The position numbers are program-made. This document shows positions 39,201-42,200 of a stretch of 64,000 nucleotides of DNA, piece by piece. The stretch lies in the NCBI RefSeq assembly GCF_000026545.1, contig NC_011601.1; one strand, given 5' to 3'. Source of the DNA: Escherichia coli O127:H6 str. E2348/69 (GTDB lineage: Bacteria; Pseudomonadota; Gammaproteobacteria; Enterobacterales; Enterobacteriaceae). How positions within the stretch are numbered: the stretch's first letter is position 1; the number at the start of each line of letters is the position of its first letter.

Positions 39201-42200
39201 AGACACATAAGGCCTCGCAATGGCTTGCAAGGTTTTACATATTTTGAGGTGGTGGAACGTGTGAACGCAGAGATGGCGCGGTAATTTGTTGATTTAAAAT
39301 GTCGTTCCTGGAGTTTCTAAGTCGTGGGCTACAGGTTCGAATCCTGCAGGGCGAGCCATTTCCTCGCCATTTATTTGTTCCCTTTTACAAATTACACCAT
39401 CACTTTGTTGTCGCGGTTTTGCTAAATAATTGGAACACTTCAGACGAATAAAATGAAAACAGAAATTCTGCTAAACAATTCATCTTGCCAGGATTTTGAT
39501 TAGGAAAGTGAAAAGGAAAGGAGCAAGCTAAGTTGCTCCCTTTAATCATTAATACTCAAGGATACTCTGCGCGGCGGGCAAATAGCGCAGAGAGAAATAG
39601 AGCGTGTCTTTACCGCAAGAGGAACGTTTCGCTAACAGCGAGGCGATCTCTGCATCCGGTTTCGGTTTCGCTGTAAAGGTTTTGCCTTTGCGGGCGACAA
39701 ACAGTTCATAAACAATGCCGCTGGCAGGGGCGGAACTTTGGCAATCGGCGCTGGCCTGTAGATAACGTTCACGCTGTTCAGCGGTCAGTTTATCCCCGCC
39801 GCTGCCATCCTGTACCCAGACATTAACGCCGGTTGTTTTAACTTGTTCCAGCAGTTGGCGATAGCCATCGGGCGACATGTTTCCGGCGAAAAAACTACTG
39901 ATATAAACCGGTTTTGCTGAAACATCGCTAATCAACCGCTGCGCGTTGTTTAACCATGTCAGCAAAGGTTGACGGGCGGCTTCGCTGCGCCAGTTCAGGT
40001 CGTCAATTTCCGCGCTGATGTACCAGCCATCCGGCGTTACGCCAGGCGCGGCGCTCCATAATCTGGCTTGCTGGAGATCGGCAGCCAGCAGGCGATTAAG
40101 ATAGCTTTCCAGCGCCGCGGATGACTGTTTCTGGTGCATAAAAAATTCCGGATCGGCATTCAGCCCGACAATCAGCTTCAGGCCAGCCTGTTGCGCAGCT
40201 GCGGCACGCTTAAACAATAACGCGCGCTGTTCTGGCTGGGTGAATGCATCGCCGTAACGGGTCCATTGCAAAACCAGGGTATCGAAGCCTTGCAAACGTA
40301 ACTGACTCATCAGCCCCTGCCACTGGGTATCGGTAACCTGACTATCACGGTTTTGTGGTTGCCAGATAATACCTTTCATCGCAAAGGAAAAAGGGCTGAC
40401 CAAAAGCAGTGTCAGCAATACGAAAATGAACTTACGCATTTACCAGTGCACTCCAATGGTGAGAAACGCGTTGTTGCGCTCTCCGTTACGTTGATTAATC
40501 GCCTTAAAGGTATGTTGATATTCGACGCCGAGACTGACTTTGTGCGGCCAGGCGTCGTAGTGCGTCTCGCCGGTCCAGATATTCCAGCGGACCCCGACAC
40601 CGCCAAGCTGCGCGCCCTGAGTGCCTTTATCACGATAACCGTTGTCCTGAACGTGAGCGTAAGGCTCAATAGTCTGTCCGTTCGCCACCTTCTGATGCCA
40701 GCTTACGCGATAATCTGCCGTCCACGCCTGAATATCCTGGCGGACATATTGCGCCGCATCGAGGTACAGGTTTTGGGCAAACCAGCCTGAACCGTTCGGG
40801 TGCCATTCGTCGCTGTATTTGCCGCCATTAAAGAATGAGGCGCTGGCGCGCAGCATGGTATCGGATGCGCCATTTTGCCCGTTCAGCGGCAACTGCTGTT
40901 CGACGGCGAGGAAAAAGATCTGATCGCGCAGCGGCTTCCAGCGCAGACCGGTGCCGGACATCGGATTTTTCACCGGCATCATCACCCCGTTTTCTCCGGT
41001 ATCGGCAAAGACGCGGCTATAAACTGAGAGCAGGTCGCCTTCCAGCAGCATATTGCGTCCGATGCGGTACTCGGCTTCCAGTTGCCTGTAGCTACGATAG
41101 CTTTTCCCTGGCGCTGCGCCGCCGACATTATTGTTAGCGGTACTCATTGCGCCGGAACGCAAGCCGATAGAAGAATCGAAACTGAACGTCCAGCGGCGAC
41201 CGACCTCCTCATGCAGACGGCGGAAATTGAAGCGTTGCTGATTTTGCTCTGGGGTCAGTGGGGTTATCAGCGCCTGATTATCAATGTCATCAATCACCAG
41301 CCGGGCGTAGTGCTGCGTCGCAGGCATGTCATCCAGACGCTGGTTCACGTAGGCCAGTTGTCGGATAAGTGCCGGATCGTCCGGTAGCCCTTTATGCGCC
41401 TGTTCGAGCATTTCCCGCGACTGTGCGATATCACCGCTATCCCACAAGGCGTAACCGAGCGCTGCCTGGGTGTTGCTATTATTCGGTTCCAGTTCCAGCG
41501 CGGCGCGCAAATCACTCACCGCCGCCGGGACATTATGACGTTGGCGATAAATTGTCGCCCGCGCAACGTAAGCGTTGGCAGAAGGCGCAATATTGATTGA
41601 GCGCGTGAGATCGTTCAGTGCGAGTTCCGGCTGACCAGGAATGTAACGTTGCGCATGCAGCCACCAGTAGAGGGCATTGTTTCCCAGCCCACGTTGTTCT
41701 GCCTGCTGAAGCCAGCGATCGCGAGCCGCACCATTTCCTGCCGCCTGGGCGGTATTGGCAGCAGCAAGCAGATCCTCATTGCTCATGTCGTGAAGACTGA
41801 TTTTCTGCCAGGCCGCCAGTGCGGTGGCGTAGTCCTCAACCTGATACGCCTGATAGGCTACCGCACGATGTTGCCAGGCGTCCGGTTGTCGTTGTTCGGC
41901 CTGAAGCCATGCATACAACGCCACACCGGGTAGCGTGTCCCGATAACACTTTGCCAGACGGTTCCAGGCGGCGGCATCGTAGGAAGGCGACATATCGCCC
42001 AGCAAGCGAACTATTGCCGGGCAATTATCTGCAATACCCGGCAACTGACTTTGCCACTGACGTTGCTCCGCCAGCGGTAAGGGTTTCGATAAAATCGCCA
42101 CCTTCGCCGGAGTTGCCAGGTAAGGATGACTTTCCAGCAGAGACGCCAGTCGCGCCATTAAAGTCTGGCTGACACGCGCATCGCCCTGGAAAGGATAGCG

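Follow-up and report, generated by a model that had tools for sequence, protein, structure and literature searches.

Escherichia coli O127:H6 str. E2348/69 lacks envY, the gene (b0566) of a regulator from the AraC/XylS family that has been implicated in the thermal control of porins, at the chromosomal position that it occupies in K-12. The short gap found there is very probably the scar of an old deletion, and the envY-less allele would have arisen by loss of the gene rather than by its gain in K-12-like strains. The envY-less locus is real, represents an ordinary lineage-specific loss widespread in the species, and has already been published; the present analysis contributes the direction in which the locus changed, the exact position of the junction and the anatomy of a remaining envY stub. 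The sequence agrees at 100% identity with the chromosome of this enteropathogenic (EPEC) strain. Positions refer to the window, i.e. the entire 64-kb stretch of contig NC_011601.1 that was analysed, unless K-12 coordinates are given.

The interval between the prophage end and ybcH

The left boundary of the locus is formed by argU (tRNA-Arg, anticodon TCT; 35914-35990, plus strand), which was identified by ARAGORN and by the RefSeq annotation of E2348/69 and constitutes the attL side of a DLP12-type prophage integration site. It is followed by a prophage remnant of approx. 3.3 kb (35991-39314), delineated by RefSeq annotation, blastn against K-12 and Pfam. Two pseudogenes are annotated by RefSeq in the remnant, one of an integrase (36006-36607) and one for tail-fibre assembly (36614-36983), together with an intact ybcY-like gene for a SAM methyltransferase, which has Pfam methyltransferase matches (37038-37694, minus strand), and ompT (37938-38891, minus strand). 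The right end of the remnant, attR, is recognized by a second, directly repeated copy of the 3' part of argU at 39315-39360 (plus strand), which comprises 46 bp, 43 of them identical to 35946-35991; its counterpart in K-12 (586054-586103) is located at the annotated end of DLP12. Thus, the remnant shares with DLP12 of K-12 the attachment site argU, the duplication of the argU 3' end on the right and ompT as cargo next to attR, but it is much shorter than the approx. 21 kb of K-12, lacks appY and has retained an intact ybcY-like gene where ybcY of K-12 is a pseudogene. On the other side of argU, folD is found at a distance of approx. 270 bp (35644-35913), with a single 65 amino acid hypothetical ORF in between. 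In the E. coli strain JNE25-003, argU is preceded by the sfm fimbrial genes and by fimZ; these genes are missing here and also in the E. coli strain HH45.

Beyond attR, the chromosome continues with a spacer (39361-39393) that reaches to the position of the envY stop codon and is homologous to K-12 586104-586146, although the alignments show it to be shorter and diverged. A degenerate and frame-broken envY 3' remnant follows (39394-39466, minus strand), which corresponds to the last 25 codons plus the stop codon. Directly to its right lies the deletion junction (39466/39467), and the remaining ybcH-proximal intergenic DNA (39467-39548) is homologous to K-12 587010-587090 but contains a different, shorter terminator hairpin. 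The ORF list and RefSeq place ybcH, encoding a 296 amino acid DUF4434 protein, at 39549-40439 on the minus strand with its stop codon at 39549-39551, and nfrA is found at 40440-43412 on the same strand, as mapped from the annotated E2348/69 record (L003, 7541-10513).

The entire interval from attR to the ybcH stop codon (39359/39361-39548) therefore measures about 190 bp, and the RefSeq annotation of E2348/69 contains no gene within 39359-39548. Two short ORFs of 50 and 49 amino acids (39299-39451, plus strand; 39400-39549, minus strand) were rejected as spurious, as they have no Pfam match and are unannotated in RefSeq. A known small RNA or cis-element was likewise dropped as a candidate after an Rfam scan of 38700-39700, which even at a permissive threshold gave only chance-level matches, the best one reaching 25.6 bits where the gathering score is 80. 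The first-pass annotation had described about 190 bp of non-coding DNA between the argU repeat and ybcH, and with the repeat at 39315-39360, the ybcH stop codon at 39549 and no credible gene in between, this description holds.

It had also proposed a hairpin terminator for ybcH. The hairpin is real, as found by pattern scan and folding, and begins 6 nt past the ybcH stop codon. On the minus strand (39542..39517) it reads AAGGGAGCAA-CTTAGC-TTGCTCCTTT, followed by CCTTTTCACT, which gives a stem of 10 pairs and a 6-nt loop with a folding energy of -14.4 kcal/mol (z = -3.0 versus shuffled sequences). A stem-loop containing G+C and followed by a T/U-rich tract past the stop codon is typical of intrinsic terminators, and both elements are present, although the tail is only moderately T-rich. 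It is therefore plausible that the hairpin at 39517-39542 acts as an intrinsic terminator at the end of the nfrB-nfrA-ybcH cluster, whose last gene is ybcH, a role that is predicted from sequence. The short version of this hairpin is also found, with a few base changes, in the Escherichia lineages L005 and L006, while K-12, HH45 and E. albertii carry a longer one. A second terminator-like hairpin on the plus strand (39350-39368; GGCGAG-CCATTTC-CTCGCC, followed by ATTTATTTGT) is located within or just past the argU duplicate, where it arises by point changes in the tRNA fragment, and it was judged to be probably incidental.

The deletion junction and the envY stub

In the K-12 MG1655 record the genes are arranged in the order tfaX, appY, ompT, the DLP12 end at 586056, envY (586147-586908, minus strand), ybcH (587091-587981, minus strand), nfrA and nfrB, which agrees with the order given in the first-pass annotation, with envY between the prophage end and ybcH. 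The K-12 gene is 762 bp long and fills the position that is empty of a gene here. When the window was compared with this K-12 stretch by blastn, ybcH-nfrA aligned at 97.9% identity and ompT with its upstream region aligned at 92% up to position 39431, whereas most of envY remained unaligned. A tblastn search with K-12 EnvY against the 64-kb window produced no match at E <= 10, and an ORF of about 253 amino acids with similarity to EnvY was not found. The same applies to the HTH_AraC/HTH_18 DNA-binding domain, which Pfam assigns to residues 169-245 of K-12 EnvY and which was not found in the gap: both short ORFs are Pfam-negative and only coding sequence for residues ~229-253 is present, out of frame. 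The absence of envY, which had been claimed from the sequence at first reading, is thus confirmed both by the alignment to the K-12 region, with 785 bp lacking a counterpart, and by the negative tblastn search.

The junction was placed by an alignment of four sequences, i.e. the window, K-12, JNE25-003 with its prophage-free site and HH45 as a second envY-less E. coli, in combination with exact string mapping. A pairwise MAFFT alignment of the window with K-12, in which the net loss amounts to 787 bp, breaks the deletion into four gaps separated by short spurious matches and was not used for this purpose. The missing segment corresponds to K-12 586225-587009 and comprises envY codons 1-228 and 101 bp upstream in the envY-ybcH intergenic region; the sequences on either side of envY are both represented in the window, and the 82 bp to the right of the junction (39467-39548) compare with the 81 bp nearest to ybcH in K-12. 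In relation to the K-12 envY locus, the window therefore offers the same chromosomal position between the DLP12 attR and ybcH, homologous flanks and a recognizable counterpart of the 78 nt at the gene's 3' end, but it lacks codons 1-228 together with the promoter-proximal region, and what is left contains indels and has no reading frame.

This stub of 73 bp (39394-39466) matches 59 of the last 78 nt of K-12 envY, and several short indels in the alignment abolish the reading frame. It occupies the envY position between argU/attR and ybcH, lies on the ybcH strand, and aligns colinearly with the envY genes of K-12, JNE25-003 and E. albertii. At the protein level, FIRLKCSNYLAKPRQQ can be matched over 16 residues to EnvY 235-250 (FYGLTPLNYLAKQRQK), with E = 0.006 in a tblastn search whose search space was the 220 bp of this region alone. 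These protein-level statistics are weak, and the assignment is convincing mainly through colinearity. The end of EnvY that is kept in the stub belongs to the second AraC helix-turn-helix (Pfam HTH_AraC, residues 208-244). Moreover, the stub shares the E. coli-specific coding sequence for the envY C-terminus, AAACAGCGACAA-AAAGTGATG (KQRQKVMW), and not the E. albertii version, indicating that it descends from an E. coli-type envY.

Distribution of the allele and direction of change

The frequency of both arrangements was determined among 5426 complete E. coli genomes. The E2348-type junction, consisting of the ompT upstream region, attR, the gap and ybcH, was found at >= 80% coverage in 1121 genomes, i.e. 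in about one fifth. This number agrees with the 1120 genomes in which the ybcH end falls into an identity band of 90-95%. Any match to envY was obtained in 4171 genomes, envY at >= 80% coverage in 4099 and the envY-ybcH junction in 4077, and the envY-ybcH and E2348-type alleles jointly account for approx. 96% of all genomes. Since nearly all envY copies adjoin ybcH, a second copy elsewhere in E2348/69 is unlikely, as judged indirectly from these species counts. An assembly or sequencing artefact as the cause of the gap can practically be dismissed, because the same junction recurs in 1121 complete genomes and its context was independently described in the literature (PMC6854850).

Whether envY was lost in one group of strains or gained in the other is best judged from the locus itself and from related genomes. 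The envY-less site holds decayed coding sequence of a conserved domain, which would be unexpected at a place where the gene had never resided. In E. albertii, which shares 86% identity with the window in ybcH-nfrA, an intact 253 amino acid envY (83% amino acid identity) lies between ybcH and argU with position and orientation unchanged, which also argues for loss in the lineage of E2348/69. An additional 160 amino acid ORF of unknown function is located between envY and argU in E. albertii (L007, 5597-6079) and is not present in E. coli. In the prophage-free site of JNE25-003, argU, envY and ybcH directly follow each other, with envY right after an intact argU; thus, envY is a chromosomal gene and not prophage cargo. 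From these data we infer the following course of events. The ancestral order would have been argU (or attR), envY and ybcH, from which an old deletion of 785 bp just outside the end of the DLP12-type prophage very probably removed the promoter-proximal region and codons 1-228 of envY. In window order, its leftovers would be the duplicated argU 3' end, the short spacer, the decayed and untranslatable stub, and the 82 bp that harbour the predicted terminator of the cluster. The envY-less allele is fixed in the lineage of E2348/69 and of the classic uropathogenic reference strains.

The opposite direction, i.e. that K-12-like strains acquired envY by insertion between ybcH and ompT while E2348/69 retained the ancestral empty site, corresponds to the wording of PMC6854850, in which envY is described as 'inserted'. 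It could also draw on two non-coli Escherichia lineages, L005 and L006, which share 90.6% and 93.5% identity with the window in ybcH-nfrA, have no envY and possess the E2348-type ybcH terminator. The outgroup evidence on envY is therefore not unanimous. However, these two lineages do not represent empty sites, because other DNA is located between ybcH and argU. The supposedly empty site of E2348/69 contains the decayed last 25 codons of envY with a part of the AraC helix-turn-helix, the E. albertii gene resides in the same position, and neither repeats nor mobile-element ends flank K-12 envY in the alignments examined. An insertion is consequently considered very improbable. In L005, whose lineage is labelled E. 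coli, the ybcH-argU interval carries a gene for a 444 amino acid MASE4-GGDEF diguanylate cyclase on the ybcH strand (9234-10568); this gene sits next to nfrB, whose product carries the annotation of a glycosyltransferase activated by c-di-GMP.

While these observations favour a deletion, a single clean event probably does not describe the entire history of the locus. In pairwise alignment with K-12, ompT and ybcH are 95-100% identical, but identity drops to 76% at 38980-39079, 75% at 39380-39479 and 69% at 39480-39579. With about 70-76% identity, the remnant and spacer have diverged beyond what simple neutral decay within E. coli and their flanks would predict, and this excess divergence suggests that the locus probably also underwent recombination or received a diverged block by import. 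HH45 provides a further hint. It is an ordinary E. coli (98.1% identity in ybcH-nfrA) that combines the E2348/69 deletion junction with a K-12-type ybcH terminator region, a mosaic which indicates that the two alleles have recombined. In the HH45 locus (L002, 4951-6173), the argU repeat is badly decayed and the omptin gene is a pseudogene. A possible, though tentative, refinement of the deletion explanation is therefore that the envY-less block (~38980-39580) was imported from a diverged Escherichia, perhaps together with the ompT-bearing prophage remnant, and that the deletion had occurred in the donor. The contrast in identity between the block and the adjacent ompT and ybcH, a terminator that is closer to the cryptic-clade lineages L005 and L006 than to K-12, and the HH45 mosaic are in line with an import. 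It is more difficult to reconcile with the E. coli-specific envY 3' sequence in the remnant; in addition, no closer-matching donor lineage was found among the 18 loci recovered, and AT-rich non-coding DNA may simply evolve faster. Taken together, the envY-less allele is old and has probably moved by recombination, which refines the deletion explanation without contradicting it.

The ompT context and its regulatory consequences

The arrangement in the window corresponds to a context that has been described for ompT. Desloges et al. 2019 (PMC6854850) reported ompT at a distance of 657 bp from ybcH, without envY, for E2348/69, CFT073, UTI89, 536, J96 and ABU83972, and described one cystitis isolate with ompT located downstream of ybcH at a distance of 657 bp and ybcY lying further on. 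The window shows exactly the same 657 bp (39549 - 38891 - 1) from the stop codon of ybcH at 39549 to the start of ompT at 38891; envY is lacking and the ybcY-like gene is positioned downstream of ompT. The structure is thus identical to the 'EPEC/CFT073-type' context (PMC6854850, after Thomassin et al. 2012 and Brannon et al. 2013), with nfrA, ybcH, 657 bp, ompT and ybcY in succession and without envY and appY. The difference lies in the interpretation: the paper's wording is that envY was inserted in other strains, while the present evidence points to a deletion in the E2348/69 lineage that left a recognizable stub, which amounts to a small correction of the literature. The first-pass annotation had missed the decayed envY 3' remnant and the absence of appY, and had not recognized that the allele is common, lineage-wide and published. 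A literature search joining envY with phylogroup B2 returned nothing.

In K-12, a second AraC-family regulator gene, appY, is located on the other side of ompT. Here, K-12 582902-584633 (approx. 1.7 kb, with appY in it) is replaced by approx. 98 bp (37790-37887), and an AppY gene was not found in the 64-kb window by tblastn. Consequently, this locus has neither of the regulators between which ompT is located in K-12. This is relevant when knowledge on EnvY and AppY from K-12 is transferred to EPEC or UPEC strains, as neither gene is present at the E2348/69 locus, but otherwise it matters little.

The role of EnvY in regulating OmpC and OmpF by temperature is derived from K-12 genetics (Lundrigan and Earhart 1984, as cited in PMC8544407), and in K-12 envY is induced 9.3-fold at 37 °C (PMC8544407). 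If E2348/69 lacks EnvY altogether, EnvY-dependent regulation would be missing as well. That the envY difference affects porin thermoregulation in E2348/69 is nonetheless an extrapolation from K-12 genetics, and our literature search found no documented porin phenotype of envY-less strains, including E2348/69.

The one correlate that has been published for this arrangement concerns ompT. Its expression was reported to correlate positively with the presence of envY, the envY-less context was tied to low ompT expression and activity, and the low expression of ompT in EPEC was attributed to sequences >150 bp upstream (PMC6854850). In the window, ompT and the first 90 bp upstream are 95-100% identical to K-12, whereas the distal upstream region (38980-39079) reaches only 76%, and this drop in identity from ~38980 fits the published attribution. 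E2348/69-type strains would thus read ompT from a different, diverged distal upstream region that adjoins the deletion scar, for which a link to low OmpT activity has been published. It is conceivable, but rather doubtful, that the envY deletion and the diverged distal ompT upstream region make up a single old haplotype of imported origin that is kept by selection in the lineage of E2348/69 and UPEC as a pathoadaptive regulatory loss and not as neutral decay. If this were true, the loss of EnvY and the altered control of ompT would jointly retune the levels of an outer-membrane protease and of porins at host temperature.
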